Shown here in pieces: positions 28,754 through 63,649 of a stretch of 64,000 nt of DNA. Source of the DNA: Convolutriloba macropyga (lineage: Eukaryota); the NCBI RefSeq assembly GCF_964194025.1, contig NC_134473.1, positions 40,548,001 through 40,612,000 on the forward strand, written 5' to 3'. Position 1 is the stretch's first letter. Every line of letters starts with the position of its first letter. The notes below the pieces were generated by a model. The model had not been told where the DNA came from. It saw only the letters and a list, made by a program, of their open reading frames with translations, and did no database searches. A program made the translations under genes and the position numbers.

Positions 28754-28755
28754 TA

Positions 28756-29796: not shown

Positions 29797-29902
29797 TGCA
29801 TAAAAATTTCCAATAGAAAAGCTAGGTTTTTCTTCAAGAATGAGAAATTTGAACTGTTTCTGAAATTGTTTAAATCAATTTGGAGAACGCTCAAACATCG
29901 CC

Positions 29903-31138: not shown

Positions 31139-31834
31139 ATGTCCGTTCAAATACTTGCTGAATCTGTAATTTCCTTGGAGCGGACATTGGTTTATCAGAC
31201 AGTTTTCGAAAACTTTGTTGTGCTTATTCAACAGAAGAGACAAGGCGATGTTTGGCAAACTTACCAGCACTGCTTGATACCCAAGCTTTTCATTAACGCA
31301 ATTGCTTCTTTACCAGAGAAGACAGAACCAGCAGATTGCAGTGTTATTACATCAGGAGGACATTTACCTCCAAAAACTTTGCCAACATTTCAACATCTTG
31401 GCATGGAGTCATTACCTGACGACGTTAAACGAATTTTGTTTCGTTACGATTGCGACTGTGTGCCTCTGTTTGAAAACCAGCTAGGGGCTTATCAGGCTTG
31501 CGAAAACTTAGCTGACATGTGGGGCATAAAGTCATCACCTTGCTCCCCAGAAAATCAATCCCAATTGGATTCAACCAGCTTGTCAGTAACACCAGCAGTT
31601 GATCCGAGTCCCAGTTTGACACCGACATCTAGTCCATCTCTCTTTGCGGGAATTCACAAGAACAATTCTACGGCTCTGTTCAGTGACAACCAGTTTGATA
31701 CAACGTTACTGTCAGCTACACAATTTCAAACACCAGAACCAGCACGTGTTTTTGGTGTCACAGACACGCCAAAGATTTGCAATGCACCAAAGAAACGGCT
31801 ACCTGAGAATACTTTAATGGACTTATTTGATTAA
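31139..31834 (+). CDS. Hypothetical Polinton protein with Ser/Pro/Thr-rich C-terminus
   Basis: ATG at 31139, 231 aa, ends with NLS-like PKKR. Confidence 0.65.
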   Translation: MSVQILAESVISLERTLVYQTVFENFVVLIQQKRQGDVWQTYQHCLIPKLFINAIASLPEKTEPADCSVITSGGHLPPKTLPTFQHLGMESLPDDVKRILFRYDCDCVPLFENQLGAYQACENLADMWGIKSSPCSPENQSQLDSTSLSVTPAVDPSPSLTPTSSPSLFAGIHKNNSTALFSDNQFDTTLLSATQFQTPEPARVFGVTDTPKICNAPKKRLPENTLMDLFD

Positions 31835-36500: not shown

Positions 36501-37881
36501 GAGTGCTTCAATTTCGACAAGAAAACTGGCTGTCGCCATACATTACACTAAATAGTGAAAAGCGGCAAGTTGCGTCAAACAAGTTTGAAGAGAACTTTTA
36601 TAAACTGATGAATAATGCAGTTTATGGTAAAAACTTCGAATCGAAAAGACGCAGAAATAAAATAACAATCTCACGAGATGCCGAGCATGCGCTGAAGATA
36701 ATATCCAGATTTGAGTTTGATCGCTATATGATCTTTGGGGAGAATTTAGCAGCCTTGACCACACGACCAAAGTCCATTTATTGGAACACTCCCACTATTG
36801 TGGGAGCGACTATATTAGATCTTGCAAAATTCCACATGTACTCATTCCATTACAATGTCATGCGCCCCAACTTTAATTGTCGCCTTCTTTACAGCGATAC
36901 AGATAGTCTCCTTTATGCGATAAAAAGCGACGATTTTTATACAGAGTTATCGCAGAAGCCTCAGTCAGTATTAAGTCATTTTGATTTCTCAAATTACCCA
37001 ACCAATCACTTTCTTTACGATACCACTAACAAAAGAGTCGTCCTCAAATACAAGGACGAATTCGCCGGCGACTATATTACTGACTTTATCTGTTTGAAGC
37101 CGAAGCTGTACTCCATCCTGTCAAAAAGTAAGTTTATTCTCTCATAAAACAAAATTGTTAGTTGTTGTATAAAAATTCGTATTGGGTTAATAGGCATCTG
37201 GAAGGTGTTAAATCGTATTATATTTACATAGGGGGTTAGTAATTATAATAGCACCTAATTTTTCTCATTTCTTTCTTTCTTTTAGGTTGTCGAAAACTTT
37301 CAGCAAAAGGGGTGACGAGGGCCGCACAACAACATCTTCGCCACGTCGACTTCCTAAACACTCTCAGCACTGGAAACCACCTGCGCTCAGAGAACACCAG
37401 GATTGTGTCCGACCACCACAGGCTGCAGACAGTTACTACAAACAAAATTTGTCTGTCAGCTTTTGACAACAAGCGCTATATACTACCCGATGGCACAAAA
37501 ACCCTCCCGTTTGGCCATTATGAAATTGTCGATTATGCTATCGATGAAATTGATTGGAATAACGACGATGTGGAATGGGATTATGACGATTTTAGCGACT
37601 TACTTTTGAGCTCTAGCCCAGATTGGGATAACAGTTTTGTTGTACCACATTCCTCTCCAGATACCACCCAAAGCTCCAACACATGGCAACCACCAGACCC
37701 CGGTTTTGTCGCTGCTCAGAATATAAATGATTCGGATATCGAAAGTAGCGATATCGTTGATTTCGATGCCAGTTTTGAAGAAAACTCTACGCCCGATAAT
37801 CCGTTCATTAATTTTGAGGCAGAAGAAGCAAGTGAAAGCGAGTCAGAGGGCCCAGTGTGCAAAACTGCAAGGCGATATTAG
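33536..37881 (+). CDS. Protein-primed family B DNA polymerase, two exons (33536-37127, 37286-37881; ~1395 aa)
   Basis: Three N-terminal C2H2 fingers; OTU-like DRDCFRYC...HHYVLI; exonuclease YFDFES, HNIQNYD; EndoVII-like CWIC...DHCHYSG...AHEKCN; motifs DANNLY, KLMNNAVYGK, YSDTDS, PKLYS. Exon 2 supplies KLSAKGV and DNKRY...TLPFGHY. Confidence 0.95.
37128..37285 (+). other. Spliceosomal GT-AG intron in pPolB (158 nt, phase 1)
   Basis: Donor A|GTAAGT, branch-like CTAAT at 37255-37259, pyrimidine tract and TTTAG acceptor; removal restores the frame. Confidence 0.88.
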
Positions 37882-38082
37882 TGTGCATAATTAAATTTAA
37901 TTGCCCAGAGAGAGACACGCAAAACTGAACCAGTATTGATTTTGCATGCAGTGTGATATTTGGTTTTAATTTAATTTGTTTGAGTGTTTTGAAATCAAAA
38001 GCAAGCGGCGAGACAGAAGGCAAAGTTAAAGGGAAACAAAAGCGGCAAGACTCAAAAGGGAATGATTGAATAGGAGAGGGAT

Positions 38083-38208
38083 ATAAACAGCGGCGGAAAG
38101 ATTTTATCCCGCCTATCCTATTCCCACTTAACCGCCACTACCTATTATCCTATGGTTAAGAGTCGAATGATAACCCCCCCTTTCTTTACGTAGGTATTAT
38201 ATACTACT
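38083..38208 (-). repeat. Right terminal inverted repeat of the Polinton
   Basis: Reverse complement of the left TIR; ends ACTACT, followed by TSD GAGGTA. Confidence 0.95.
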
Positions 38209-39109: not shown

Positions 39110-39250
39110 AAAATGAACGCACGAGGGGGCCGTCGTGCGTTCATAGTCTGGAAACAACGAAAAATGCACGAAAGTCTGAACATGAATGTACGAAAGTCTG
39201 GTGAACGCACCAAAGTCTGAACATGAACGCACGAAAGACTGGACATGAGC
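39110..39250. repeat. Short imperfect minisatellite (ATGAACGCACGAAAGTCTG-like)
   Basis: About five degenerate copies. Confidence 0.75.
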
Positions 39251-40000
39251 GTGTTTAAAGGTTGAGAGAGAACAACCTAAAGTAAATTGTACATGAGTTA
39301 AGCTTGACATAGCTTGACAAGAAGTTCTACTTGTTCATCGCGTACTTGGCTAGAGACATGAAGCCTTGAAGAACAAGAAAGAACGTGAGAACGGGTTATA
39401 AGAGATGCCCAAGTTAAGGAGCTTAAGAGCAGCTGGTGCAAATGGGCAGCAAACTAAGCTTGCAAGTAAAAGATGCTTGGCACTTTCAGAATGGGATGGT
39501 TCGGACAGACCTGCTTCCGTCTGGCACCTCAGCCTGGGATATTTGCAGATTCAACTTGGTCAGTTCGTAGGAGGATATGTAGCAATGATAGCCAAAGTCA
39601 TCCTGGACATTTTTGTTGGTTTGAAAAATAAAAATTGATTACTTTAGAGTCAATTTAGATCTTATCAATAATCGCCTCCCCTTTAGTAACTATAGTAGAA
39701 AATTTCCTCCACTTCTATACTATACTAAGATTTTTGCGTGAGCGTGCTGGTCAGATAAGCTCTTATTTGTCAATAATTTGCTCGCTTAAAATCTATTCAA
39801 GATTTGCCCCCACTTTTGTATTAGGGGAGGGGATTGTTGAAAGATGCGTTAAATTTTTAAGCGTTAAATGTTTTCCTTTATTCACCTTAAGCTATCATAA
39901 GAAATTTATAATGTATTGAAAAGTTTTTTTTCAGTGCCCACTTTGGTTAAGTTTTAAAGTTAAATTGTTCTAATTTCATGTTTTTTAGTTACTTTTCGAA

Positions 40001-41203
40001 ATGGATTTGAAAATCTCGCTTGTTTATATGTTTATTTTGTCATATTGCTCTATATTTTACCTCTCAGTTAACAACGGATACAATCAAAAACGCACCAAAG
40101 GCTACAATTCACTATCAGATAAACAAAATCACCAATATCACGAGACAGAGGAATCAAAAATTTCCAGGAAAACGAGATGTATGTCATCTAACTGGTCATT
40201 CAGAAACACAACCCACAAAAAAGCACCCATAACTTTCATGCCACCCGGGGACCAGCTTTTAATGCCCCAATCGTATAAAATTGAAATATGCGACACCACA
40301 AAAGCTAACTTACGTGTCCTTTTCTTTCTTAGCCGAATCAGCCAATCAGAACAGCGAAATGCTATTAGAAATACGTATGGTGCTTTCGATAAATATCTCA
40401 ATGACAGTTCCCTAGACGGTAACTGGTCGCTATTTTTTCTGGTCGGGAAACCATCTGGTCAGGTTGAAAGAAGTAATATGGAGAAAGAAGCCGAACAGTT
40501 TGGAGATGTAATTGTGGCGAACGTCAGTGAAGGTTACTACAGGACAACATACAAGCTATTAGTTGCAATAAAAGTAGTTTCGTGCTTTTGTCCAAATGCT
40601 GAGTATGTAATTAAAGCGGATGATGATACCTATCTTGTAATGAAGAAATTTGACAAAATGATTACATTTCATCAACAAATGGTCGATAAAGGCACGGTTG
40701 ATAGTGCTAGTCACCACATATCAAATTCTGTTATAAGCGAAGGACATCGAAATTTCTACACGGGAGCCGTTTGTGGGGACAAATATCAACCGCTGAAGAA
40801 AGGTCCGCAATTAGTGAAGAAGACAGAGTTTTCGGACGAATTTTACCCGTTTTTCTGTTTCGGACCATTCAATATTTTTACAATGCAATCTGTTCATAAG
40901 TTGGCTATTGACTGTCCACATCATTGCATAGGTCGAAAAGCGGAAGATTATGAAGAAAACAAAAGCAAGACATGTTTTCACAAATTTGAAGATGTGTTCA
41001 TTGGTTCATGTGTCGCAATCACTCAGCATGATGAAACGGTTTTGTCATATATCGATGAGAAACTGGGAGTTTATCTTGGCACTACGCGTGAAATGGGAAA
41101 AATACTACCTCCCGAGAATCATTTAGCCGTACATTGGAACAAAAAACCCGAACAGATGAGAAAAACTCACGAATTTTACCTCCGCAGAAACCTTTTGTAC
41201 TAA
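40001..41203 (+). CDS. GT31 family beta-1,3-glycosyltransferase (B3GALT/B3GNT-like), copy 1
   Basis: Type II N-terminal anchor, RNAIRNTYG, FLVG, E...FGDVI, KADDDTY (DxD), YPFFCFG, FEDVFIG; intronless CDS. Confidence 0.9.
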   Translation: MDLKISLVYMFILSYCSIFYLSVNNGYNQKRTKGYNSLSDKQNHQYHETEESKISRKTRCMSSNWSFRNTTHKKAPITFMPPGDQLLMPQSYKIEICDTTKANLRVLFFLSRISQSEQRNAIRNTYGAFDKYLNDSSLDGNWSLFFLVGKPSGQVERSNMEKEAEQFGDVIVANVSEGYYRTTYKLLVAIKVVSCFCPNAEYVIKADDDTYLVMKKFDKMITFHQQMVDKGTVDSASHHISNSVISEGHRNFYTGAVCGDKYQPLKKGPQLVKKTEFSDEFYPFFCFGPFNIFTMQSVHKLAIDCPHHCIGRKAEDYEENKSKTCFHKFEDVFIGSCVAITQHDETVLSYIDEKLGVYLGTTREMGKILPPENHLAVHWNKKPEQMRKTHEFYLRRNLLY

Positions 41204-43733
41204 TTGATAACAATTGCAGAATCAGGACATCTCTAGTGGCATTTAATTCGTAACAAAATGGCAATACTGTGAAATGAAAACTTTGCTTAGAATATTTGGA
41301 TTATATTTATTCAAGAACAATGCTTGACAATTCACAGAATATTGAAAGAGCTTAAGATATGACTTTTGTGTGAAATTTCCGCTTTGTCAGTATTTATCAT
41401 ATTAATTTGAAATAAAAACAAACACTCTGATACCAGAATTTTAATAAAATTTATGTATATTTCTAAATACCCCGCCAGCTCAATTGTTCATTAGAGGAAA
41501 AAACTAAATTGAGAGATTATATGAGAGATTTTTCAAAATTGAACTTGCATTTTATTTGATTAAAAGACCCGGACATGAAAACCCTACTATAGTCTCTACG
41601 TAGCACAAAAAGCTCCTTTAACGCCGAAGACATGTTCCCATCAACTATTCAAACTGGAAGCGCAAAATGCTACAAAACTGTAAATGATTATACCATTTGT
41701 TCGAAATCGTCAACATATTTTTCGTATTTTTTGTCATTGAATTTAAATATATATCTTTTTTTTGTAACAATATATCTGTTTATACACTAGACACCAGAAA
41801 TCTAGACCAAATAATTCAAATTTTCTGGATAATTTTTTGGAGGAGCCAAAATTTTGATTCGCACATTTTTTGTTCTCTGATATTCATGCCCTAGTTCAGA
41901 AAACGTCGCATGTAAACGTAAGAAAATTGTCGGTACGTTCGCTTCTCGACAAAAACGACGAAAGCCCTTACGTTTTTTTTTCTTTTCGATTTTTAAACGC
42001 AAGAGAATCGTTGATATGGTCGGTTTGAAACTACTAGAAATCATGACAACTAGATGACGGATGTATTTGACTCCTTATCATATCAAGATTCAGTGAGTGT
42101 GATTTGATGAACTGAAAGTTCAGGAAGTCTTATAAGTTCTTAAATTGAAAAAAAAATGTATTTGTTCAACTAGTCTCATAAATGAACTAAAGAAGAAAGT
42201 CATTTTTTGATGAGTTTGTTTCCAGCAGTTACGTTAGTAGGAACGTTTGATTAGAAATATATCTTAAAATTTGACTATATTATATACAAAAAACTAAAAT
42301 ATTTGTTCAGAAGAAACCAAGTATTATTTTACGTATAAAATTGAAGAACACACTAAGAGCTAAGAGACAGAACACACGGACAATTTTTTGCGTTCGAAAC
42401 CGAACATACCGACCATATCTGAGGTGAACTTGCGTACAGCAGGTCTCTAAAACACAGAATAACTAATACGTATTAAGAAAGAACTTAAAATCAAGAACCT
42501 ACTGAATGCTTTCAGAAGTTATCAAAATGATAAAAATGATCAGACCTCTATTTGTTGGCTTAAAATATACAATGGGCACATTGTTGCTGCTGGGGTTTTC
42601 TAAAGGTGAAATATTTAATTATCAAAACAATCTCGAAAATGCTTTTCTCATCCTATTAGAGAAATCTCGCTCAAAAATTTTATTCCATTTTTATCTGTGC
42701 AAACCTTGAATTGATTTTATTTGTAAAAAGTCCTTAATCTAACCACCTTGCTTATAGATATAATATTCCCGTGCGATCTTAAGTCTCTAAAGTCTCTGTA
42801 TCTAATGGCAGCCCTCGCACCAATGACAAGGAAAGTTTGACACCGCCCCGTTCAATTCAGTGGTTTCAATTTTGTCCGGTTATTACGATTTCGCCTTAAC
42901 TTTTGTGAACTGTATTATGGGCTACGCAGCAGATTAGGGTCGCATTTCCTGATTCTGAACGCACGAAAGACTGGACATTTAGCGTGTTTAAAGGTTGAGA
43001 GAGAACAACCTAAAGTAAATTGTACATGAGTTAAGCTTGACATAGCTTGACAAGAAGTTCTACTTGTTCATCGCGTACTTGGCTAGAGACATGAAGCCTT
43101 GAAGAACAAGAAAGAACGTGAGAACGGGTTATAAGAGATGCCCAAGTTAAGGAGCTTAAGAGCAGCTGGTGCAAATGGGCAGCAAACTAAGCTTGCAAGT
43201 AAAAGATGCTTGGCACTTTCAGAATGGGATGGTTCGGACAGACCTGCTTCCGTCTGGCACCTCAGCCTGGGATATTTGCAGATTCAACTTGGTCAGTTCG
43301 TAGGAGGATATGTAGCAATGATAGCCAAAGTCATCCTGGACATTTTTGTTGGTTTGAAAAATAAAAATTGATTACTTTAGAGTCAATTTAGATCTTATCA
43401 ATAATCGCCTCCCCTTTAGTAACTATAGTAGAAAATTTCCTCCACTTCTATACTATACTAAGATTTTTGCGTGAGCGTGCTGGTCAGATAAGCTCTTATT
43501 TGTCAATAATTTGCTCGCTTAAAATCTATTCAAGATTTGCCCCCACTTTTGTATTAGGGGAGGGGATTGTTGAAAGATGCGTTAAATTTTTAAGCGTTAA
43601 ATGTTTTCCTTTATTCACCTTAAGCTATCATAAGAAATTTATAATGTATTGAAAAGTTTTTTTTCAGTGCCCACTTTGGTTAAGTTTTAAAGTTAAATTG
43701 TTCTAATTTCATGTTTTTTAGTTACTTTTCGAA

Positions 43734-44936
43734 ATGGATTTGAAAATCTCGCTTGTTTATATGTTTGTTTTGTCATATTGCTCTATATTTTACCTCTCAG
43801 TTAACAACGGATACAATCAAAAACGCACCAAAGGCTACAATTCACTATCAGATAAACAAAATCACCAATATCACGAGACAGAGGAATCAAAAATTTCCAG
43901 GAAAACGAGATGTATGTCATCTAACTGGTCATTCAGAAACACAACCCACAAAAAAGCACCCATAACTTTCATGCCACCCGGGGACCAGCTTTTAATGCCC
44001 CAATCGTATAAAATTGAAATATGCGACACCACAAAAGCTAACTTACGTGTCCTTTTCTTTCTTAGCCGAATCAGCCAATCAGAACAGCGAAATGCTATTA
44101 GAAATACGTATGGTGCTTTCGATAAATATCTCAATGACAGTTCCCTAGACGGTAACTGGTCGCTATTTTTTCTGGTCGGGAAACCATCTGGTCAGGTTGA
44201 AAGAAGTAATATGGAGAAAGAAGCCGAACAGTTTGGAGATGTAATTGTGGCGAACGTCAGTGAAGGTTACTACAGGACAACATACAAGCTATTAGTTGCA
44301 ATAAAAGTAGTTTCGTGCTTTTGTCCAAATGCTGAGTATGTAATTAAAGCGGATGATGATACCTATCTTGTAATGAAGAAATTTGACAAAATGATTACAT
44401 TTCATCAACAAATGGTCGATAAAGGCACGGTTGATAGTGCTAGTCACCACATATCAAATTCTGTTATAAGCGAAGGACATCGAAATTTCTACACGGGAGC
44501 CGTTTGTGGGGACAAATATCAACCGCTGAAGAAAGGTCCGCAATTAGTGAAGAAGACAGAGTTTTCGGACGAATTTTACCCGTTTTTCTGTTTCGGACCA
44601 TTCAATATTTTTACAATGCAATCTGTTCATAAGTTGGCTATTGACTGTCCACATCATTGCATAGGTCGAAAAGCGGAAGATTATGAAGAAAACAAAAGCA
44701 AGACATGTTTTCACAAATTTGAAGATGTGTTCATTGGTTCATGTGTCGCAATCACTCAGCATGATGAAACGGTTTTGTCATATATCGATGAGAAACTGGG
44801 AGTTTATCTTGGCACTACGCGTGAAATGGGAAAAATACTACCTCCCGAGAATCATTTAGCCGTACATTGGAACAAAAAACCCGAACAGATGAGAAAAACT
44901 CACGAATTTTACCTCCGCAGAAACCTTTTGTACTAA
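43734..44936 (+). CDS. GT31 family beta-1,3-glycosyltransferase, copy 2
   Basis: Identical to copy 1 except I12V. Confidence 0.9.
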   Translation: MDLKISLVYMFVLSYCSIFYLSVNNGYNQKRTKGYNSLSDKQNHQYHETEESKISRKTRCMSSNWSFRNTTHKKAPITFMPPGDQLLMPQSYKIEICDTTKANLRVLFFLSRISQSEQRNAIRNTYGAFDKYLNDSSLDGNWSLFFLVGKPSGQVERSNMEKEAEQFGDVIVANVSEGYYRTTYKLLVAIKVVSCFCPNAEYVIKADDDTYLVMKKFDKMITFHQQMVDKGTVDSASHHISNSVISEGHRNFYTGAVCGDKYQPLKKGPQLVKKTEFSDEFYPFFCFGPFNIFTMQSVHKLAIDCPHHCIGRKAEDYEENKSKTCFHKFEDVFIGSCVAITQHDETVLSYIDEKLGVYLGTTREMGKILPPENHLAVHWNKKPEQMRKTHEFYLRRNLLY

Positions 44937-46760
44937 TTGATAACAATTGCAGAATCAGGACATCTCTAGTGGCATTTAATTCGTAACAAAATGGCAATAC
45001 TGTGAAATGAAAACTTTGCTTAGAATATTTGGATTATATTTATTCAAGAACAATGCTTGACAATTCACAGAATATTGAAAGAGCTTAAGATATGACTTTT
45101 GTGTGAAATTTCCGCTTTGTCAGTATTTATCATATTAATTTGAAATAAAAACAAACACTCTGATACCAGAATTTTAATAAAATTTATGTATATTTCTAAA
45201 TACCCCGCCAGCTCAATTGTTCATTAGAGGAAAAAACTAAATTGAGAGATTATATGAGAGATTTTTCAAAATTGAACTTGCATTTTATTTGATTAAAAGA
45301 CCCGGACATGAAAACCCTACTATAGTCTCTACGTAGCACAAAAAGCTCCTTTAACGCCGAAGACATGTTCCCATCAACTATTCAAACTGGAAGCGCAAAA
45401 TGCTACAAAACTGTAAATGATTATACCATTTGTTCGAAATCGTCAACATATTTTTCGTATTTTTTGTCATTGAATTTAAATATATATCTTTTTTTTTGTA
45501 ACAATATATCTGTTTATACACTAGACACCAGAAATCTAGACCAAATAATTCAAATTTTCTGGATAATTTTTTGGAGGAGCCAAAATTTTGATTCGCACAT
45601 TTTTTGTTCTCTGATATTCATGCCCTAGTTCAGAAAACGTCGCATGTAAACGTAAGAAAATTGTCGGTACGTTCGCTTCTCGACAAAAACGACGAAAGCC
45701 CTTACGTTTTTTTTTCTTTTCGATTTTTAAACGCAAGAGAATCGTTGATATGGTCGGTTTGAAACTACTAGAAATCATGACAACTAGATGACGGATGTAT
45801 TTGACTCCTTATCATATCAAGATTCAGTGAGTGTGATTTGATGAACTGAAAGTTCAGGAAGTCTTATAAGTTCTTAAATTGAAAAAAAAATGTATTTGTT
45901 CAACTAGTCTCATAAATGAACTAAAGAAGAAAGTCATTTTTTGATGAGTTTGTTTCCAGCAGTTACGTTAGTAGGAACGTTTGATTAGAAATATATCTTA
46001 AAATTTGACTATATTATATACAAAAAACTAAAATATTTGTTCAGAAGAAACCAAGTATTATTTTACGTATAAAATTGAAGAACACACTAAGAGCTAAGAG
46101 ACAGAACACACGGACAATTTTTTGCGTTCGAAACCGAACATACCGACCATATCTGAGGTGAACTTGCGTACAGCAGGTCTCTAAAACACAGAATAACTAA
46201 TACGTATTAAGAAAGAACTTAAAATCAAGAACCTACTGAATGCTTTCAGAAGTTATCAAAATGATAAAAATGATCAGACCTCTATTTGTTGGCTTAAAAT
46301 ATACAATGGGCACATTGTTGCTGCTGGGGTTTTCTAAAGGTGAAATATTTAATTATCAAAACAATCTCGAAAATGCTTTTCTCATCCTATTAGAGAAATC
46401 TCGCTCAAAAATTTTATTCCATTTTTATCTGTGCAAACCTTGAATTGATTTTATTTGTAAAAAGTCCTTAATCTAACCACCTTGCTTATAGATATAATAT
46501 TCCCGTGCGATCTTAAGTCTCTAAAGTCTCTGTATCTAATGGCAGCCCTCGCACCAATGACAAGGAAAGTTTGACACCGCCCCGTTCAATTCAGTGGTTT
46601 CAATTTTGTCCGGTTATTACGATTTCGCCTTAACTTTTGTGAACTGTATTATGGGCTACGCAGCAGATTAGGGTCGCATTTCCTGATTCTGAATTAGTCC
46701 CAATAAACAAAAACTTTTAGCATTGCTGTTTAACAAATTGCTTCGCACAGAATAACAGAT

Positions 46761-47078
46761 AGTAATGTCTAAACTTTGATTGGATGTAAAGTTAAGCCAT
46801 TTCTATTTAAACTTAGTTAAATCTTATTGGTGGAAAAATGCATGATTTATTATTGAATGAATAGCTTACCATTAGAAGGATTGGATTAGAAGAAGTGAAG
46901 TTGTAGAAAGATATTGTTTAATTTGAAAGAAGAAAGTTTAGATGGAATGTAGAAGAGAATTGATTATTAGAATTCGTTGTTTTGGGAAACTGCAGGAACC
47001 ACATCCGAAGACCTGAAATATATTCTTAATAATATCAGATACTTAACAAAAATTTAGTTTATTATTGCGAATATAAGT
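46761..47078 (+). repeat. 5' LTR
   Basis: AGTAAT...ATAAGT; one substitution seen relative to the 3' LTR; followed by TGGTGAC. Confidence 0.95.
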
Positions 47079-47085
47079 TGGTGAC
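47079..47085 (+). promoter_or_regulatory. Truncated primer-binding site (TGGTGAC)
   Basis: TGG directly after the 5' LTR; the rest is replaced by the rearrangement. Confidence 0.6.
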
Positions 47086-47093
47086 AATTCTGA

Positions 47094-47498
47094 TTAATAC
47101 GCAATTCTGATTAATAACCGTTAACTTATTAAAAATTATAGATACCCATTGCATGCGAAAATTTTGTACACAAACCATAACACCAAAAGCCGTCTTGTTA
47201 ATGTGGTTTCAAATTCTTTAATGAAGGAGTTTATAAATTAATAAGCAGTGTAACATCAAAATTAAAGAAGCGCAGAGTAATGTCTAAACTTTGATTGGAT
47301 GTAAAGTTAAGCCATTTCTATTTAAATTTAGTTAAATCTTATTGGTGAAAAAATGCATTATTTATTATTGAATGAATAGCTTACCATTAGAAGGATTGGA
47401 TTAGAAGAAGTGAAGTTGTATAAAGATATTGTTTAATTTGAAAGAAGAAAGTTTACATGGAATGTAGAAGAGAATTGATTATTAGAATTCGTTGTTTT
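47094..47498 (+). repeat. Ectopic copy of 3' UTR + PPT + partial third LTR (47276-47498)
   Basis: Matches 57266-57670 with about six substitutions. Confidence 0.92.
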
Positions 47499-48163
47499 CG
47501 AGACTGTGTGTAAAATCTGCGATTTCGAGAGTTTTCTATTCTTTATTGGCGAAGCTAATGAGATAGTTAGGTCTGGTAAATAAAGTAGACCCTTATAAGG
47601 ATGTATCACAATATTGTATTTGCGAAAGAATGGAAGGCCAAGTAACATTGAAGTTATATTTTGCAAGATCAAAAATTCTTCTCTAAACTGACAATTTCCA
47701 ATAGTTATTTGAATTTGAACACATTTTTCAACACGAACAACTCTTCCATCTGCCATTTTCACTGATTCGGGGAAAGGTTCTGACGATTTGAGGATCTTGC
47801 TCGGCTCCTTTTTCAATATCAAATTAAAGAGTTTAATTGGCAGTGCACTTGAAAATGCGCCTGTGTCTAATAAAGCGTTAATGTGGAAAGTATCAAAAAT
47901 AAGCGGTACATAGAAAAGTTTCTCTCCTTGTAAAGAAATTTTGCCTGTTTTACATGCTGGGACAATAGCCGTTAGATAATGTGGTTGATTCAGTTTTTTG
48001 ATGGGTTGTATCTGTTGAATGGGATGTTTGTCCCACGTTCCGGTAACGTTTTAAACCAACAGTCACTTCTTTTATGTCCTGGTTGTCCACAGCAGTGGCA
48101 TAATAGATTTCCTCTCCCTCGGTAGGAATTTGAAGTTTGATAGCGTTGTGAAGATTGCCAACG
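47489..48163 (-). pseudogene. Inverted fragment of gag C-terminus (CCHC knuckle) and aspartic protease
   Basis: CHCCGQPGHKRSDC; slippery A AAA AAC at 47999-47993 into the -1 frame; ALLDTGA and LLGLPFF. Confidence 0.9.
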
Positions 48164-51100
48164 ATACATCCAAACCAACAGGAAATTATTGAATGCAAGT
48201 CGATTAACCAGGACAGAGCTTACAAATACACTTCGGGACTGATAGAGCCGTCAATTCAATTCGAAAGTAAGTCAGGCCTTTGTATAATTCCTTCAATTAG
48301 CATATTAGATGGAAATTGCCGAACTCACATTGGAATCATGAATCTCAATCCGAATAAAATCACAATTACAGCAAAAACAAGAGTAGCTAAATTTGAGGTT
48401 CTAACATCAAAACAAGCATCTTTTATCAAACCAATTCACCCTTCACTTTGCAGTCTGATTAATACTAACGAGTACGAAAATAATTATCTTAAAACATCAA
48501 GTTACTTACGTCGACAAATCTTTTCCGAAAGGACTGATGGTTTTTGGTTCCCAACACCAGAAAATTGTAAAGACGCTTCAAAATTAATTGGGGTAGAGAA
48601 AAATATCTATGAATCTCTAATGAAGTTTAGGGAAGACGAAATGCTTGACCCAACCATTAATGACGCCAGCCGAAAAAAATTCCTAAGTAAATTCAGTTGG
48701 GATAAGTCAATATTCAACATTAGCCAAAAACGAAAAACGGAAGAGCTGCTAATGCGCTATCATAAAATTTTCGCACGACACCGACTAGATTTAGGGAAAA
48801 ACACCGACAGTCCAGTCAAGTTAACGCCTGAGCATAACCGTCCTGTATATTCTCCTAATGCGATCACTCCGATACATTTACGTGATGAATTAATTATTGA
48901 ACTCGCATTTATGCAATACTACGATATCATAACAACGCTTCCATTTTCAAAGTATTCTTCGCCAATCTTTGCCCAACGAAAGTCGAGTGGAAAACTGCGA
49001 ATTCTGATTGATCTTAGAAAAATAAACCACTTACTTCGACATGACTACTCGAATCATAGTTTTCCTATTCCGACGATGGCTGATGCCAGTGCTCATCTAG
49101 CAGGTAAATCAATTTTTGCAAAAATGGATTGCAGCCAAGCTTACTTTTCGATGCAAATGGCAGATGAGTTGAGTATTCAATTAACCGCATTTAATTTTGG
49201 CTGGCGTACATTTGCTTTCAAGCGACTTGCGCAAGGCGTAAGCAGATCGCCTCCAGCCTTCAGTGCTTGTGTAAACAAACACCTTCATGCATGCGTTGCA
49301 AGCGACAGATGCTTTGTTTATTTCGATGATTTAGGTTCAGGAGCAATCGATGGAGATGCACTTATTGAAAACTTGGAACAAATTTTTATTAAAATAAAAA
49401 GCCTGGGATTCAAATTGTCAATCGAAAAATGTGAATTCGGAATACCTGAAATTAATTTCCTTGGCCATACCATAACAGGAGATGGCATTAAACCAAATAA
49501 AGATAAATTAGAAAAATTTCTGAAAACAGTAAAACCACCCAAATCTGTAAAACAAACAAGAAGATTAATTGGTTTTCTTCAATACTTCCAAAAATTTATT
49601 CCGAATTTGGCTGAAGAATTGCAACCGTTCTTTAAGCTACTACGAAAAGAAAGCACATTTATTTTAACATCAGAACATCATAATAGCCTTGAGAAACTGA
49701 AAGATGACCTCAAAAATGCGTGTTCATTGTCATTGAAGATGGCAAAACCAAACTGTCAATTCGTTATTTTGTGTGACGCAAGCTTCTATGCAGCTGGATT
49801 TGTATTACTCATTGAAGATTACTCTATGCCCAATAATACCAGCTCAGGAAAATCTTACGCACCAGTAGCCTTTGGTTCACATTTGTTTTCCCCAGCACAG
49901 TTAAAACATTCAATCTATGTCAAAGAATTCCTTAGTGTACAGTATGCTTTTGAAACGTTTGAACATTACATATGGGGAGTCTCAACCAAGCCCATTATAG
50001 TGCTAACAGACAACAAAAGCGTAACACGTTTCTTTCAAGCCAAGCGGCTACCGGGCAAACTTTGGAACGCTGTTGACTACGTGCTTTCATTCAACTTTGT
50101 CTTAGGCCATATTCCAGGCAAGGCAAATGCAGCTGCAGATTATTTGTCTCGCGTACACATAAACCCAGCAACAAAAATGAAACTTAAGTTAGAAGATCAA
50201 ATACCATTACACAAAATACGAATTGAAGTGTTATCAAATACACCAGATAATTCAATAACCTCTGTATATAATAGTGAAGAAATCGAGTCAGAACCTACTC
50301 AATACAAACTTCCAGAAATCACGGTTACAAATACAAATGAAATCGAAGAAGAAATTACAGAACTGAGTTCAATACATTGTAGTCAAATTTGTACACTCTC
50401 GGAAGAAAACCCACTGGATAAATTAGATTTGAGTTAAAGCTTAGTACCACTAAATATTGAGAGAGAGCAACGTAATGATCCAGACATAGTAAAAGTGAAA
50501 ACATGGATACACAACAAAATTAAACCGGAAACCACTTATTCAACGTATGACTTGAAGAAATACCACAAACACCTTAGCCGTTTAATACTAGAAAATGGTA
50601 TACTGTATAGAAAGTTTTTTGATCATACAGGACAAAACTACCATAAACAGTTGGTTGTTCCTAAACACTTACGAACAGAGTTACTGTACCGTGTTCACAA
50701 TAGTAAAATGAAGGGACACTTGGGAATACAAAAAACAGTACGTGAATTCCGCCGGAAGTACTATTTTCCAGGCTTCATTGATTTTCTAGTGGTGTACATT
50801 AATAACTGTTTAACATGTGCGCAAGCAAAATCTCCTCAGCACAAATACTTAACACCACCATTAAATCCAGTTAGTTCCAACACAAGCCTACCAGCTGATA
50901 TGCTTCAAATAGACATTGTAGGAAAATTACCTCATAGCGGTGGATACTCATATATTTTGACTGGAATGGACGTTTTCACAAAATACATGTTTGCGCAACC
51001 ACTAACTTCAGTTTCAGCAGAAACAGTAGCAAAATATCTTGTACAATGGTTCATGCGACATTCATATATTCCGCTTTTAGTAGTTACAGATCAAGGTACC

Positions 51101-52345
51101 CAGTTTGTTTCAAAATTACTCCAAGAACTTGCGGAAATTTTAGAAATAAAACTTGAGCACGCTACAGTAAAGCACGCACAAACAATTGGTGTAATTGAAC
51201 GATCCCATGGACCACTGAAACGCTATCTAAGGATTTATGAAAATCAATTACAACACGATTGGCATAAGCACATAGACCTAGCAGTATTCCAACATAATAC
51301 TAGTTACCATACAACTATTGGTTGCCCACCAACTCTACTTTTTCATGGTCGAATACCAATAAACCCAATAGATGTTAGGTTTAACAACAGAACATTGTAT
51401 CATCACAGTAGCAAATATGACTACATATCAGATTTACAGAGCAAAATGATGACACTTTTCGGGCAAACAAAAGAATTACTTGTGAAATCTTTTAATAAGT
51501 ATAAGGAATACTATGACAGAAAAGCAGCAGCTGTGCCACTCAAATTAAATGACTATTGTGTTATGCTAAACCCAAAACTGTCTAACGAACACGAGAAAAT
51601 CAGCAACTTACAATGTAAATGGAATGGATTATACCGCATTGAGAAAGTTCTTTCCAGAAGCAATTATGTAGTCAGAAAAGTTAATACCAACCATACGCAA
51701 ATAGTCCATAGAGTTCGATTAAAACCTATTATACCACAGTATGAAGTAAAAGACCTTACTAATATTGACAGTAAACAATTTATTCCAGATCCATTAGTGC
51801 CTGAAGCATTACGAGAACCAGAACTTTTCGACAATAGTTTAGAAGATATGCTTTATAATCCATGGGATTTAAATAGAGTAACCAAAGTCGAAACAAAAAT
51901 ACCACAACTTAAATTGAATGAGCAACAAAACGAAAACACTCCAGGAAGAAGAACAACTGAATCAAGTGTTTCTAATAGCGCAACACAATCAAGTACTGAA
52001 TCATCAAATTCAATCTTTAAGACTCCAGAATCAATTGGAAACGATCAAGTTCATTCAACACCAAATTCAGAAATTTCAAGTCCAAAATCGACTAATATTA
52101 GAAATATTGTTCCCCCATCTGAACCAAAAGCACCTGTATCAAATTTGTCTAAAATAATTGCAGAAAAAAGAGCTGAAAGAGCAGCGCAGTCAAGTAGTAG
52201 TAATTCAACTGTACTTACAACAGCCCAAAAACCAGCTCAAACAACTGTATCAGTACAAGTTCAACAACCATCACCACAAGCTGCAAACACAGTTTCACAA
52301 TATGGTCGTGTCAGGAAGCAGACACAACATTTTCAGTCTAGTTAA
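48156..52345 (+). pseudogene. pol: pol (RT, RNase H, integrase) with one in-frame nonsense codon at 50435-50437
   Basis: LRILIDLR, KMDCSQAY, YFDD, CDAS, TDNKS, NAAADYLSR; HHCC, QIDIVG, VTDQGTQF, IERSH. Confidence 0.95.
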
Positions 52346-52755
52346 GACGTTTTTCTTACAAATACTTATCCTATTTTCATTACTATAACATTATTTCTAT
52401 AAAACACTGAATAATTTGAAAACGACTATGTTCATATATTCCTTTCCTCAAATAACTATTTTGCACACTGAATGAACACCAACCATTCCAAACTTGCCTC
52501 CAGCAAAACTATGCATTTAACACTTTGAAGGGAAAGTTATCGACATTATTATCCCTGATTATTCATGTTTCCAACAATAGTTCTATTAGGAAAACATACA
52601 AAAATTCAATTATCTCGAGTTACAATAAAAAAAATGAAAAATCCGCCTGCATACGATTGTAGCCTAGGGTTTTGTGCAATTAATGAACCTATTCTCATTA
52701 TCGCAACTTTTATGTGCTAGCAGCGTAAATTATAAAACTTTATAAAAACGTACTT

Positions 52756-53025
52756 TTATTGAGAAAATTGGTTATTTTCTCGCTGTTGAATTTCAACTCC
52801 AGCCCGACATGTTTGATCTGCAGTCCACATATTCTCTACGCGGTAGAAATTGACTAAATGCAGTTCATTTACTGCTGCACAATCTCTTCCAAGACCACGG
52901 TGTAACCTCAATTGGAGGTTTTCTAAACAGCATAAAATCGAATTTTCCACCGTAATATTCCTATATGCACTTACATATTCCCCTATATCAAATTTTACCT
53001 GTTTCTTTATTTCGTTTTTCTTCAT
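52756..53025 (-). CDS. Possible third antisense accessory ORF
   Basis: ATG-initiated, 89 aa, overlaps the end of the AT-hook ORF; no motif recognised. Confidence 0.3.
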   Translation of the reverse strand: MKKNEIKKQVKFDIGEYVSAYRNITVENSILCCLENLQLRLHRGLGRDCAAVNELHLVNFYRVENMWTADQTCRAGVEIQQRENNQFSQ

Positions 53026-54134
53026 ATTTGGCTTTCTGACCAGGAAGGAAGAAACTGCGTTTACGATTTTTGCTTGAGCCCGCAGGGCGGCCGCGTTTAC
53101 TTGTACTAGTGGTAATAACTACATTTTGGCCAGACGAAGCATAAGATTGTAAATGTTCAGTTATTCCACTGTTCTTTCCATGTTGTTTATCTCGAAAGCT
53201 ACTCCATTCAGCAGCTCCCTTTATGCCATGAACTATTAACCCTAATAACCAGACTTTAGAAGGCATTGTTCTGCAAACCATTTCCATAATTACTCAGCGT
53301 TTCTTGTGCGCGACTAGTATCATTTACGTTATTTGCTTCCCAACCCAAGACAAGTGAAGGACCGGTTGTGAAGGATAAAACTGCATGCGCGCATAAAGCA
53401 GGCTGGCAAAGGAAATGAGATTTGTTTGGAATGTAATAGTACATGGAATGTTTGTATTTATCTGGTCCACTCTTTACAAATTGAATGAAATTCTTGACAC
53501 TTCTAAAATGCCTTTCTAACAATACACTTTCTTTACCACGGTTAGAAATTATGAATAACTTTTCACCAACAGGGGTATATGAAATTGAATCCTTACCACC
53601 AGTTTCAACGTGACCATCTGTATAATACGGATTAAATTGAAACAATGCATCAAAATTAGTAAAAGTTAACGATTCAGGAATAGAAAAAGTACATAAATTC
53701 AACATAGAAAAACTTACAGAAAACGAATGTTCATTTAAATCAAAATCGGGACATGAATGAGTCTGATAAATTCGTGATTCACGGCAATGGTTTATCACAG
53801 TTGAAGGTAGGGTGTAATAATTATCAACAATTTCACGGAATTGATTAGCATTGCTAATGTTCTCCACATCGTTTAGAAAGGAATTATCAATTTTAAATAA
53901 CTCGTGATTTGTTATTGCAACGGGTAATTTCATCCAGCCGTTATTTATTAAATTATTGACACCTTGCTTATTAAACTCGGTCATAACATCAGACCAATTT
54001 GAAGCGCCTTGAACATCAATATTTGGCACAGGTTTCCAGCCGATTGATTGTAAAGTTGATTCATTATAAAAATTGTCCTTAAATAATTTGATTTCTTCAT
54101 ACAAGGACAGCGAAAAATTTCGTGTATTTGGCAT
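52988..54134 (-). CDS. JmjC (KDM2/KDM7-like) 2OG-Fe(II) oxygenase with probable C-terminal AT-hook; 1-nt frameshift near 53258
   Basis: YTDGHVETGG...GEKLFII...QPALCAHAV gives T172/H175/E177/K192/H250. The overlapping downstream frame has KRGRPAGSSKNRKR. Confidence 0.8.
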
Positions 54135-54241
54135 AGTTTATCTTAAAGAAAATTATTCATTATTACAAAAAAAATATTGCTGTTTACCACTAAACCTCTA
54201 GAAAATTTGAGTTCCGCTGAAAGATTAAATTTCATAGGTAC

Positions 54242-54517
54242 TTAGCAAAAGTACAACAAAAGGGCAGCAATTAAACATGGCCAGCAGCAGACACACAGAA
54301 CACAGGCCAAAGAAAGCAACCACAAATACTGCCAGACAGAAGACTCCACTACCTCTGACACGCAGGGATACTCCACGCTATTCGCGGTGAAGACAACCAC
54401 CCCAGACTCCAAGAATATAGTTGCATCTTTGCAACACAAAACTTTTGTTTCTTTATCAACGTTAATCTCATTACAGGCCGAAGCCAACATAAAGAAGAAC
54501 ACAAAGAAACGAAACAT
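54242..54517 (-). CDS. Small Cys-rich type I membrane protein (antisense accessory ORF)
   Basis: Signal-like MFRFFVFFFMLASAC, ~45-aa ectodomain with Cys residues, hydrophobic WQYLWLLSLACVLCVCCWPCLIAALLLYFC. Confidence 0.6.
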   Translation of the reverse strand: MFRFFVFFFMLASACNEINVDKETKVLCCKDATIFLESGVVVFTANSVEYPCVSEVVESSVWQYLWLLSLACVLCVCCWPCLIAALLLYFC

Positions 54518-55049
54518 ATTTCAACTGAAAACATACTTACCATTAGTGATGAATTCAAAATAATTCCATACTTTACGTTACAACACAGAAGACACTGAAA
54601 ACAGACATATTATTCATCAATTAACAAAATATTTGGATTTTTGTGCAAACTACATGTTACAAGGTGAGGTCTTGTCTAGACCAACACTATTCTTAGAATA
54701 CTACAATAACAAACACTAAACTTCGCTGATTAAACATCTACGACGAAACAGCAAAGTTACACGCTACGCTTAAACAAGAGGGCTTTTGGCAATTGGAATG
54801 TGAAAAACTAAACCTAGAGCTATTTTGAAAACAAAATTAATACTGCAGGATATTTATTCAAAAAGTCTGATCACCTACAGATGTTATTAACAGAGCCCAG
54901 AGATATTTTCTTGAAAGTCTCATAGTTTGAGGATATTATTTCTAATTAAAATGGCTTGATGAAAACTCAGTAGGTCATAAACTATTCTTAGCCTGGCCAC
55001 CTAAGGATCAAATTTAAATCCTACCAAAACACTGTCATATTCTCTCAAA

Positions 55050-57282
55050 ATGGTTTCCATAGTTTACCTGAGTCTAATAGTTACAGCAAATATTTTATCA
55101 AGTCATTGCGAATATCAGAACAACGGCATAGAATTTGTTTATCAACAAAAACTTTTGTTAGCTGAAAAATTTATTAACGTTCAATTTTTGGTTCCCTTGC
55201 CAAAACTAAATGAAACAATTGACGAGCAAATTAAATATCTTACAACAACATTATCAAATGCTTGGAGCAAATACGAATTCGGCTGCGACTTGTCAAATAT
55301 GTCAACGAATGAAACATCGCTCAACTTTGAATTAATTTCAAAACACGTTGAAAAACAATTACTAGCAGCCAAAGTCGACATAAAGGAACTTCAGGAAGAA
55401 CTTTTCGAAACGATGGGATCAACTAAAACAATGAGGAATTACTCAGCTAATAGAAACAAGAGAGGAGCTGGCTTAATAGCATGTGGAGCATTAACTGCAT
55501 TATCAGCAGGGGCAGGCATTGCATGTTCATTAGGGTCAATATTTGGAGGTTGCGGAGGATCAAGTCACAGTCAAGATGATATTGACTATGCCTTGCAGGA
55601 ATTAGAAGAAAATAAATACCGCTGGACTGAGGTCAACTCAAAACTGAACGAAAAATTTTTCATAATTGCTTCGCAAATGAAAGATATACAGAAAACGCAA
55701 TCACTTCTTATTGAAACACAGAAAAACCATACCATAACTTTAAACAGTGCCATCGATCTACTTAACAACAACACGAGACGCTTAATGGCGTGCAATCAGT
55801 ATTTCTACGCACGAGACGAGATGCTACAAGTTCAAACAAATTTGGCAGCTTCACTTGCAATTAACAATGAAATTAAAGCTTACAGAGTTGCTGTTTACGC
55901 CTACAAACTAAATTTACTGAATTCTGTCATGTCAATGGTTAACAAAGTGATACCGATGTCTTTACTACCACGATTGATGCTATTTGAAATTCTTCAAAAA
56001 GTAGCTTTAACCCAAGTTCACCAAACAGACAGATTGACACTTGCTATTCCAACGAATCAGATTCTCACGTATTACGAGACAAAAATTTTAACAAATGTTG
56101 CTGTAGTCAATTCAGGAATGATTTTCACCTTAGCAGTACCTTTTGCATCTGGTTCGACAGCTCTGAACTTATATAGAGCAACTCCAGTGCCCATGCTCAA
56201 CGGAGGAGAAGATGGTTACGCGTCTCAGTACGAATTGGAATCAAATTACATTGCAATAGCTGAATCTACAAACCGCATAGCATTACTCTCACAGCCACAA
56301 ATTGACAATTGTGTGGGCTCCAGTAGTTTTTCTGTATGCATAAATGGATTCTCATTGGAAACCGCAGAAAACACGTGTCTAGGTTCACTATTAATTGGCA
56401 ATCAGTTCTCAGCGTTACAAAACTGTAATATCTTAACTGTCAAACTCCCTATTAAAGAAAAAGCAAAGAATCTCGGCAATGGTAAATGGCTGATAACATC
56501 TTCCAGCAAAAACTTTGATATTTTTCTCAGCGATTTGAAAAATACTGATCATCTTAAACGAACAAAACTTCCTGGATGTCAAGTATGTGTGTTAGAATTG
56601 AAATGTGGAACAAAAATCGAGACTAGTTCAATGGAACTGAGAGCAGATGTTTTCTTGCAAAAACGATAGTGCGATAAAAATCGACATTAAACTAGCAGAT
56701 CCTCTGCAGCATCTCTTCAGTAAGCTTCCAGATTTATCAGAACTTCCACATATTTCATCAATGTCTGAAGCTCGCAAACAAATTATTGAAGAAGTTCAAT
56801 TAGAAATGTTAATGGTGCCCCAATTTCACAGAAAATCGCTTGTCAAATTAGACGAAATCTCTGAACCTATTATTCAAAACATGAAGAAGTTGAGGCCAAG
56901 TATTCAGAACAAATTTCGAGAAGCTGGAACTTGGAAAATGTCCTTAACGATTGGGTTCTGTTCTTTCTGTATTTCATTACTATTGCACTTTGGACTCACG
57001 TATGCTTTACAATGTTATCGTCAACGCTATGCTAGAGTTATTACATCGGTGGTTGGTGAAAAGAGAATTGAATCAAAACCGATTTTGGTTGTCTCTGCAG
57101 CAGACCATCAGTATTTACAATTACATCCTATGAGTAAACTTGCGAACAACAATATTGTTTTGAGTGAACAACAGTTGAAACAACTTTTTAATCTGACAAA
57201 TCAAGAGAGTGCTCCAGTAGACTTAGACAATATGCAACTTGTTTGTAAACAAATCGCGCGAAGCCTTAATACGCAATTCTGA
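55050..57282 (+). pseudogene. env: env: class I fusion glycoprotein (baculovirus F/errantivirus-like), frameshift near 56650
   Basis: Signal peptide, furin site RNKR, fusion peptide GAGLIACGALTALSAGAG, heptads, Cys-rich region. The TM segment LTIGFCSFCISLLLHFGLTY lies in the second frame. Confidence 0.9.
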
Positions 57283-57447
57283 TTAATAACCGTTAACTTA
57301 TTAAAAATTATAGATACCCATTGCATGCGAAAATTTTGTACACAAACCATAACACCAAAAGCCGTCTTGTTAATGTGGTTTCAAATTCTTTAATGAAGGA
57401 ATTTATAAATTAATAAGCAGTGTAACATCAAAATTAAAGAAGCGCAG

Positions 57448-57765
57448 AGTAATGTCTAAACTTTGATTGGATGTAAAGTTAAGCCATTTCTATTTAAACT
57501 TAGTTAAATCTTATTGGTGGAAAAATGCATGATTTATTATTGAATGAATAGCTTACCATTAGAAGGATTGGATTAGAAGAAGTGAAGTTGTAGAAAGATA
57601 TTGTTTAATTTGAAAGAAGAAAGTTTAGATGGAATGTAGAAGAGAATTGATTATTAGAATTCGTTGTTTTGGGAAACTGCAGGAACCACATCCGAAGACC
57701 TGAAATATATTCTTAATAATATCAGATACTTAACAATAATTTAGTTTATTATTGCGAATATAAGT
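57448..57765 (+). repeat. 3' LTR
   Basis: Preceded by purine-rich AAAGAAGCGCAG (PPT); followed by TSD CAGAT. Confidence 0.95.
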
Positions 57766-62329: not shown

Positions 62330-63649
62330 CCCGGGTCGAGGTGTCACCACCATTCAACGCAAAATTATGTAAGATAAGCGGTGAATGCGGTCAAATTAGA
62401 TAAATCAGGCGGTGAATGCGGTGAAAAAAAACCTTTATCGCCTGGTAGCGTTAAATTACATAAATTCACCGCTTTGAAAAAAGTGTCCTAATTGTGTAAG
62501 ATAAGCGGTAAATACAATGAAATTACATAAATTCACCGCTTAACCTAGTGGTGAATTTACATAAATTCACCGCTTAGAAAAAAGTGTTTAAATTGTGTGA
62601 GAACAGCAGTGAATGCGGTGAAATAACATAAATTCACCGCTTAACTTAGTGGTGAACTTACATAAATTCACCGCATGAAAAAATTTTAGAAATTGTGTAA
62701 GAACTGCATTGAATGCGATCAAATTACATAAATTCACCGCTTGGAAAAAAGTGTTTAAATTGTGTGAGAACACCAGTGAATGCGGTGAAATTACATAAAT
62801 TCACCGCTTAACTTATTGGTGAACTTACATAAATTCACCACTTACAAAAGAGTGCTAAAATTGTGTGATACCGCTCAACTTAGTGGTGAAACAACATAAA
62901 TTCACCGCTTAACTTAGTGGTGAACTTTCATAAATTCACCGCATGGAAAACTTTTTTTGAAATTGTGTAAGAACTGCATTGAATGCGGAGAAATTACATA
63001 AATTCACCGCTAAACTTAGCGGTGAAATTACATAAACACGCCGCTAAGACAAAAAGTGTTAAAATTCTGTGAGACCGCTCAACTTAGTGGTGAAATAGCG
63101 TAAAATCACCGCTTAGAAACGCTTCGAATTGTCTGTTCAACGAAGTTAAGGTACACTTATTAAAAGACGAACGAAAAATTTACCCACAAATGGTCATACA
63201 TCTTTTCGAAACTTTTTAAAGCGGTGAATTTATCTAAATTCACCACTAGAGTAAGCGGTGAACTTACAAAAAATAACCACATTTCACCGCTAAAATTTGT
63301 AATTTCACCGCTAATCTTACAAAACTTCAACGCGTATATTTTACAAAAAGTAGAGTGAATTGATTTAAATTCAAAAAATATGCTAGAAATTAGTGAGAAA
63401 TTGCGCAGAGGAAGAAGAAGTGGCTGACGTGCAGGAGATGAAAGGTTTGAATCCGTACAAGGTGGGTAGCGTTTAGTAAGCGGTGAAATGTGGTGCATTT
63501 TTTAAGTTCACCGCTTACTCTAGCGGTGAACTTTCAAAATTTCACCGGATTCACCGCATTTCACCGCAAAATTATGTACAAAATTTGCGGTGAAAAACCA
63601 TTTTTCACCGCTTATCTTACATATTTTTCCGATTTTTCTTCGACCCGGG
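62330..63649. mobile_element. Non-autonomous DNA transposon (CMC/EnSpm-like), 1320 bp
   Basis: TIR CCCGGGTCGA...TCGACCCGGG, 2-bp AG flanks, subterminal inverted ATGTAAGATAAGCGGTGAA / TTCACCGCTTATCTTACAT, and dozens of TTCACCGC motifs in both orientations. Confidence 0.8.

Follow-up and report, generated by a model that had tools for sequence, protein, structure and literature searches.

Organization of the LTR element and its antisense cassette

The window, i.e. the whole stretch of 64,000 nucleotides analyzed here, contains an LTR element that carries a cassette of minus-strand genes between pol and env. The following features were assigned to the element:

46761-57765: LTR element carrying the cassette, with paired LTRs and a target duplication
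46761..47078, plus strand: 5' LTR of 318 bp, 99.7% identical to the 3' LTR
47079..48173, no strand assigned: rearranged 5' region lacking gag, delimited by blastn against the near copies L088/L089
48338..52345, plus strand: pol (RT, RNase H, integrase; PF00078, PF17917, PF00665, PF17921), interrupted by a stop in this copy
52756..52922, minus strand: predicted second exon of the JmjC gene, with 54 codons, corresponding to the conserved portion of the third ORF
52998-52923, minus strand: predicted phase-1 GT-AG intron of 76 nt, from donor and acceptor conservation
52999..54134, minus strand: exon 1 of the JmjC gene, encoding a JmjC-fold domain and a basic tail, from frame alignments and a structural model
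53385..53621, minus strand: predicted catalytic core (T172, H175, E177, K192, H250), kept in 21-22 of 22 aligned rows
54142..54155, minus strand: pyrimidine tract with AG resembling a splice acceptor, 7 nt before the ATG of the JmjC gene
54242..54517, minus strand: gene A, 91 aa, with a signal-peptide-like start, four conserved Cys, and a C-terminal hydrophobic (transmembrane-like) segment
54525..54601, minus strand: conserved leader signals (initiator- or acceptor-like motif, donors, branch-like motif, acceptor)
54970..55024, plus strand: two-helix RNA stem-loop supported by covariation, with a palindromic UGGCCA apical loop (54994-54999)
55050..57282, plus strand: env-like gene, split over two frames here
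57448..57765, plus strand: 3' LTR, paired with the 5' LTR

Judged by its sequence, the host element is an env-bearing LTR retrotransposon of the Gypsy type: (i) the Pol domains recognized by Pfam follow the Ty3/Gypsy order of RT, RNase H, and then integrase, and (ii) the paired LTRs are accompanied by a TGG primer-binding-like site directly after the 5' LTR and by a 5-bp target duplication, the same 5-mer flanking both ends of the element, as in Ty3/Gypsy elements. In the env-like product, a hydrophobic segment comes directly after a basic site that resembles a cleavage site. Its comparison with the hMPV F protein yielded weak matches (E 0.36-0.78), and F proteins rank 3-4 (E 0.025-0.028) among the matches of its structural model, which is poor (pLDDT 49.8). 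The copy in the window is defective: gag is missing, and interruptions occur in pol, in env, and in the large antisense frame. The gag slot is filled by a duplicated piece of the 3' end/LTR and an inverted piece of pol; sister copies keep gag upstream of pol as a frame of 337-364 aa.

The stop codon of pol (52345) and the start codon of env (55050) are separated by a gap of 2.7 kb, which the initial annotation described as three tandem minus-strand ORFs set off from env by a spacer. Re-derived coordinates agree with the size of the gap and give a spacer of 532 bp before the env ATG, and the first (54517-54242, 91 aa) and third (53025-52756, 89 aa) ORFs are present as described. The second, 54134-52988, is a single ORF in sister copies but not in the window, where it is divided into frames of 292 aa (54134-53256) and 99 aa (53287-52988); among the 11 near copies (L002-L012), 8 have exon 1 as one frame of 378 aa. 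The break in the window copy, a stop and a frame change near 53.25 kb, follows codon 292 and lies past the catalytic residues. As a gene count, the three ORFs were not retained: the cassette holds two genes, gene A and the JmjC gene, and the latter most likely comprises ORFs 2 and 3 as its exons. Three independent ORFs were rejected since the middle frame is continuous in near copies and ORF 3 is conserved only as exon 2.

Distribution and conservation of the cassette

A DNA search of the 1.18-Gb genome revealed at least 58 matches to the cassette (40 scored of 78 candidates), and the best 21 of them span almost the whole cassette at 77-100% identity. Protein searches yielded at least 135 matches to the JmjC gene (134 scored of 849 candidates) and 144 matches to gene A. 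The layout was described for 60 of these 135 matches to the JmjC gene, of which 20 were selected as divergent and 40 were taken down the list. The JmjC gene is antisense to env in 58 of these loci, lying between pol and env in 32, behind env in 25, and beside env only in one; the remaining two are 5'-truncated fragments without a layout. In the second layout, the cassette sits between env and the 3' LTR, and gene A starts approximately 100-200 nt from this LTR. Upstream extension of nine second-layout loci recovered pol and paired LTRs 95-100% alike in eight, and neither in L083. Conversely, 15 of 20 env matches without a listed JmjC neighbor carry the JmjC gene, the other five being deleted or rearranged copies, and none of these 20 env-picked loci has a substitute gene in the cassette slot. 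Among 16 loci with a Pfam OTU match, none has a pol, env, or cassette match within 1.5 kb. Conservation of the antisense accessory genes across copies and lineages is thus borne out by the DNA matches, the layout, the env-picked loci, and the selection described below.

For 23 elements, the integrase tree and the JmjC tree each separate the two layouts with full support, and for the most part they agree. Two elements, L054 and L056, change place between the trees. Moreover, the integrase segments of L062 and L063 (with L081 and L080) are at zero tree distance, whereas their JmjC proteins share only 64% identity, a pattern suggesting that subfamilies have exchanged the 3' module.

Two structural variants were observed among the copies. 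Loci L007-L010 (G000:C6:30.43-30.45 Mb) form four tandem units of ~4.1 kb, each comprising the integrase end, the whole cassette with an unbroken exon-1 frame, and the env start. In loci L062, L063, L064, L065, L067, and L069, the stretch from env to the JmjC gene holds three further small sense ORFs of 102-151 aa; those of L063 have no Pfam match.

The dN/dS values of the JmjC gene between subfamilies are 0.08-0.18 in six pairs, one of them near saturation (four further pairs were saturated and left unscored), and those of gene A are 0.13-0.31 in six unsaturated pairs, two others being saturated. Divergence at the three codon positions, measured against 8 copies at 77-81% identity, is 0.12/0.08/0.27 for the JmjC gene, 0.13/0.08/0.23 for gene A, and 0.09/0.07/0.25 for env, and two long spacers show flat divergence near 0.22. 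Divergence concentrated at third positions in the minus-strand frames of gene A and the middle gene, with flat divergence in the spacers, argues that these ORFs are more than chance. By these sequence comparisons, gene A and the JmjC gene are both under purifying selection.

A cassette that is passively carried, or that represents a one-off host insertion with chance ORFs, would fit the broken state of the window copy, seen here as in pol and env, and the dN/dS of 0.37-1.03 for the JmjC gene in four very young pairs. This reading is refuted by the multicopy DNA matches, the fixed layout, and the selection between subfamilies, and the splice signals and the presence of the genes in another sequence set also stand against it, so that we assign it a negligible probability. 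The one-off insertion that the initial annotation had named as a refuting outcome conflicts in particular with the at least 58 DNA matches. Furthermore, none of the host JmjC matches at the Pfam level falls on the element family: the six Pfam JmjC matches in the genome are other genes. We are highly confident that the JmjC-fold dioxygenase gene is real and belongs to the LTR element. Separately, a host KDM5-like gene (L098) occupies a single open frame of 1450 aa and appears to lack introns over that stretch.

Outside this genome, the JmjC profile matched 355 cluster representatives, taken as isolated sequences, at E<=0.001; among ten that were looked up, nine are unnamed and one is a 'hypothetical protein'. 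A metagenome search yielded seven loci at 28-35% identity. The env of contig L071 is arranged head-to-head with its JmjC gene (E 1.6e-11). Upstream of the JmjC gene, weak A-like frames are present in L071 and L077 (E 0.06-0.1) and, by eye, in L073. IMG/VR yielded no relative. In L076, a contig of another sequence set, a minus-strand frame at positions 1094-2152 gives a weak Macro match (E 0.016); it converges on the JmjC gene and may be a pol end.

Predicted fold and active site of the JmjC protein

The structure of the exon-1 product was modelled from the sister copy L004 (96% identical), with a pLDDT of 84.6. The best Foldseek match of the model is ceKDM7A (E 3.4e-8), and the top 13 rows of the VIA comparison are all JmjC proteins (Z 10.6-13.8). 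These include JMJD5 (Z 13.8, rmsd 3.1, 188 residues aligned), PHF2 (13.7, 9.6, 253), ceKDM7A (13.1, 4.3, 248), KDM2A (12.9, 3.8, 242), JMJD6 (12.9, 4.0, 238), and TYW5 (12.8, 3.5, 193), with FIH just below. The histone demethylases PHF2, KDM7A, and KDM2A are tied with the non-histone hydroxylases JMJD5, JMJD6, and TYW5, at 11-15% identity. At the sequence level, a narrow profile had no match among PDB sequences, and a wide profile had seven, all of them PHF8/PHF2/KDM7 (E 0.034-0.073). The Pfam JmjC family PF02373 stays below its cut-off, being matched in 2 of 22 members (best E 0.018) and in 2 of 28 relatives (16-17 bits, the cut-off being 24).

The His-Glu-His iron triad is conserved in 21 of 22 aligned natural frames and in 32 of 36 in a wider set, and the 2-oxoglutarate Thr and Lys are kept alongside it. 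In the wide profile, the predicted core aligns to the HxD..K..H stretch of PHF8. The corresponding iron and 2-oxoglutarate residues given for KDM2A are T209, H212, D214, K229, and H284 (PMC11168414). The predicted element enzyme shares with KDM7/PHF8/PHF2 and KDM2A (PDB 3N9L, 3K3N, 8F8Y, 2YU1) the JmjC fold and the pattern Thr-x2-His-x-acid...Lys...His with near-identical spacing. It differs from KDM7 and KDM2A by HxE in place of HxD, by Ser and Glu in the pocket, by an identity of only 12-15%, and by the absence of reader domains, as Pfam detects neither PHD nor CXXC in the exon-1 frames. At or near the positions of KDM2A Y222 and N298, the family has Ser and Gly/Glu, respectively, which suggests that its substrate pocket differs from that of KDM2A; the pocket contains an invariant Glu266 and Ser183. 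The basic tail, which we liken to an AT-hook, carries a conserved GR-like motif. The model and the alignments give good support to the fold and the active site, and not to the subfamily or the substrate.

Given these observations, four roles of the protein were considered. The one we prefer, with slightly better than an even chance, is that the element encodes a predicted JmjC demethylase, likely nuclear and anti-silencing, together with a small predicted membrane protein. As an unlikely alternative, the protein may be an active dioxygenase on a non-histone protein, either a host silencing or antiviral factor or one of the element's own proteins, acting by hydroxylation or by arginine/lysine demethylation. 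PIWI proteins carry methyl-arginine marks that are candidate targets of this kind. The structural scores of JMJD5, JMJD6, and FIH, level with or near those of KDMs, the distinct pocket marked by invariant Glu266 and Ser183, and the lack of a histone reader domain would all suit such a target, whereas every sequence-profile match is to the KDM7 family and the basic tail has its conserved GR-like motif.

We regard as quite improbable that the enzyme modifies RNA, be it element RNA, primer tRNA, or small RNAs, in the manner of the AlkB domain of an orchid Gypsy element (PMC9289625). TYW5, tied by structure at Z 12.8, the basic tail, and the AlkB precedent speak for an RNA target, but both fold and sequence are those of a KDM-type JmjC protein and not of AlkB. 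Still less probable is a non-catalytic protein that would act as a decoy for methylated chromatin or silencing factors, with the antisense RNA itself tuning sense transcription. Such a role would accord with the weak Pfam family scores and with the regulatory action of HBZ-type antisense products; conservation of all five metal and cofactor residues among members that are only ~20-40% identical argues against it.

Probable exon structure of the JmjC gene

The assignment of ORFs 2 and 3 to one gene is based on several sequence features. A G|GT donor occurs within the last 15 codons of exon 1 in 49 of 55 loci, compared with approximately 33% expected from codon use, although the copies are not independent. 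The TT[TC]AG acceptor was found in 45 of 55 loci, with predicted intron lengths of 56-93 nt, and 37 of 55 loci have an in-phase exon-2 frame of at least 40 aa, other frames being mostly short. The ATG of ORF 3 is not conserved, and only the 3' part behind the TTTAG acceptor is kept. For exon 2, pN is lower than pS in all five pairs scored. The exon evolves fast; that of the window matches the profile of another subfamily group at only E 0.76, and no diverged copy was matched by ORF 3 in direct tblastn searches. Dismissal of ORF 3 as spurious, considered because of the missing tblastn matches and a weak codon-position signal, was overturned by the shared ATG-less frame starting at TTTAG.

In the second layout, four of five copies (among L062, L063, L068, L069, and L070) have a donor-like motif within a few bases after the JmjC stop codon, hinting at an intron in the 3' UTR; in L069, the motif comes after the next frame instead.

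Gene A, leader signals, and probable antisense transcription

Gene A has no family match in Pfam, and its product is predicted to be a small membrane protein from features read by eye in the alignment. For gene A, the spacer, and the window, searches by Pfam, Rfam, and ARAGORN provided no match. Upstream of gene A, the leader contains, in order, a donor at 54576, a branch-like motif, a second donor at 54540, and an acceptor ending at 54525, 7 nt before the gene A ATG. The pattern of the second donor followed by the acceptor and ATG is present in 37 of 51 loci, compared with 18 of 1100 shuffles, and 30 of 51 loci additionally have the upstream donor. The motif at 54576 had been considered TATA-like; this assignment was dropped in favor of a splice donor because of its spacing of 51-53 nt to the acceptor. 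The acceptor-like site before the JmjC ATG occurs in most of the listed copies with the pol-env layout, as judged by inspection.

The simplest reading of these signals is alternative splicing of one antisense transcript; a micro-intron of 15-17 nt in the leader appears less likely than two alternative splices. The antisense pre-mRNA would start in the spacer or, in the second layout, in the 3' LTR, and a short leader would be spliced to the acceptor before either gene A or the JmjC gene, yielding two mRNAs. Retention of minus-strand splice signals across subfamilies points indirectly to antisense transcription, and the antisense orientation would allow the introns to survive reverse transcription of the sense genome. 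Four sequence runs consulted for splicing consist of contigs with flat coverage and gave no splice information. In the pol-env layout, an internal antisense promoter is plausible given the conserved leader signals at 54601-54525; in the second layout, the proximity of gene A to the 3' LTR suits an HBZ-like LTR promoter. A bidirectional promoter shared with env, as suggested by the initial annotation, is not supported, as the cassette is oriented in the same way in those loci (25 of 60) where it lies far from the start of env, and the env-side motif is an RNA hairpin.

RNA hairpin upstream of env

The env-side motif of the spacer is conserved in 43 of 54 loci. Its reading as a promoter was replaced by that of a covarying RNA hairpin, which leaves less reason to assume a shared promoter. 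Among 15 chosen copies, two-sided changes occur in 10 of 12 base pairs, and 91.7% of cells are paired, compared with 38-52% in slid controls. The covariation score was reached by none of 500 shuffles, with the qualification that related sequences can inflate covariation. The G-U pairs favor the sense strand. Folding of single sequences gave weak z-scores (-2.1 to +0.6), so the case for the hairpin relies on covariation. The hairpin has no Rfam match, and scanned stretches of the second layout and of the 5' leader contained none of this kind. In kissing-loop architectures such as the HIV-1 DIS, a self-complementary hexamer is exposed in a hairpin loop. The conserved hairpin likewise has a self-complementary hexamer in its loop, and by this analogy it looks like a kissing-loop dimerization signal in an unusual place, just before env.

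Proposed function and comparison with known systems

Animal LTR elements are restrained by small-RNA-guided histone methylation, and, to our knowledge, few element-encoded counter-measures to silencing are known. In the preferred mechanism, the basic, AT-hook-like tail would bring the JmjC enzyme to chromatin, where it may demethylate marks of the H3K9me2/H3K27me2 type, as handled by KDM7-like enzymes; removal of repressive histone lysine methylation would help the element escape silencing, and protein A possibly acts with or against Env. If true, a JmjC enzyme selected across a whole clade of elements that moved recently would counter the host defence directly, by enzymatic means. A broader proposal, which is tentative and in our estimate has somewhat less than an even chance, is that an old env-bearing lineage of animal retroelements carries a movable, intron-containing antisense counter-defence module, in which one alternatively spliced transcript would encode either a membrane microprotein or a member of an unnamed JmjC demethylase family erasing repressive marks, the first histone demethylase of an animal retroelement, with the dimerization hairpin located before env rather than in the 5' leader. 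The JmjC family defined here (355 cluster representatives at the threshold used) escapes Pfam, and the cassette would extend complex-retrovirus-style antisense, predicted-spliced accessory genes beyond vertebrate retroviruses.

Searches of the open-access literature revealed no JmjC-bearing retrotransposon. Elements with their own dioxygenases, proposed to counter silencing, are described in other groups: fungal DNA transposons carry TET/JBP erasers (PMC12730594), and orchid Gypsy elements carry an AlkB/ALKBH5-like ORF (PMC9289625). The present element differs from both by an enzyme of the JmjC family, the presence of env, antisense orientation, predicted introns, and the paired membrane microprotein. 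The DNA virus LbFV also has JmjC genes, and similarly represents an inherited virus that keeps a host-derived JmjC gene (PMC5381508); by contrast, it is a large dsDNA virus whose JmjC is recognizable by Pfam and only weakly matches the fold of the element enzyme (rank 33).

An accessory gene has reportedly been found in maize Grande. The antisense layout had been called unusual for Gypsy elements, which holds only in part, as antisense ORFs as such are known in plants: Retand Gypsy elements have conserved antisense ORFs 3' of pol, encoding TRP28-type proteins, with no env and no enzyme (PMC11963269). HBZ of HTLV-1 is likewise an antisense spliced accessory gene in a provirus, and the second layout adjoins the 3' LTR in the same manner; HBZ differs in being a bZIP factor of a true retrovirus.

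Chary and Hayashi refer to Ty3/gypsy elements carrying an F-type env as 'ancient errantiviruses' (PMC13524379). These share with the present family the LTR-gag-pol-env order, the RT-RNase H-integrase order, and many near-identical copies, and the main text of the survey contains no occurrence of JmjC, antisense, accessory, or demethylase (PMC13524379). The F-type identity of the env studied here is only weakly indicated. The env-bearing Oikopleura elements Tor3b/4b have an internal env promoter, indicating that the pol-env intergenic space can hold a promoter, and differ in that no antisense genes are reported in the account of them (PMC4402516). Varied ORF3s are described in rotifer elements (PMC5408684).

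Other features of the window and genome

Two further stretches of the window, 87-5177 and 21526-38180, resemble Polinton/Maverick elements by eye. They contain integrase, ATPase-, protease-, and capsid-like frames and a DNA polymerase B-like frame of 1232 aa; inverted arms of 89 nt are located at 21526-21614 and 38092-38180. At positions 39248-45789, a galactosyltransferase gene without introns (PF01762) is duplicated in tandem with a period of ~3733 bp, the copies being nearly identical, and repeats of 34/67/101 nt that contain inverted arms form an array at positions 62363-63547. Elsewhere in the sequences analyzed, nine OTU matches (L164-L170, L176, and L179) lie within open frames of 1178-2515 aa and probably represent a separate mobile family.
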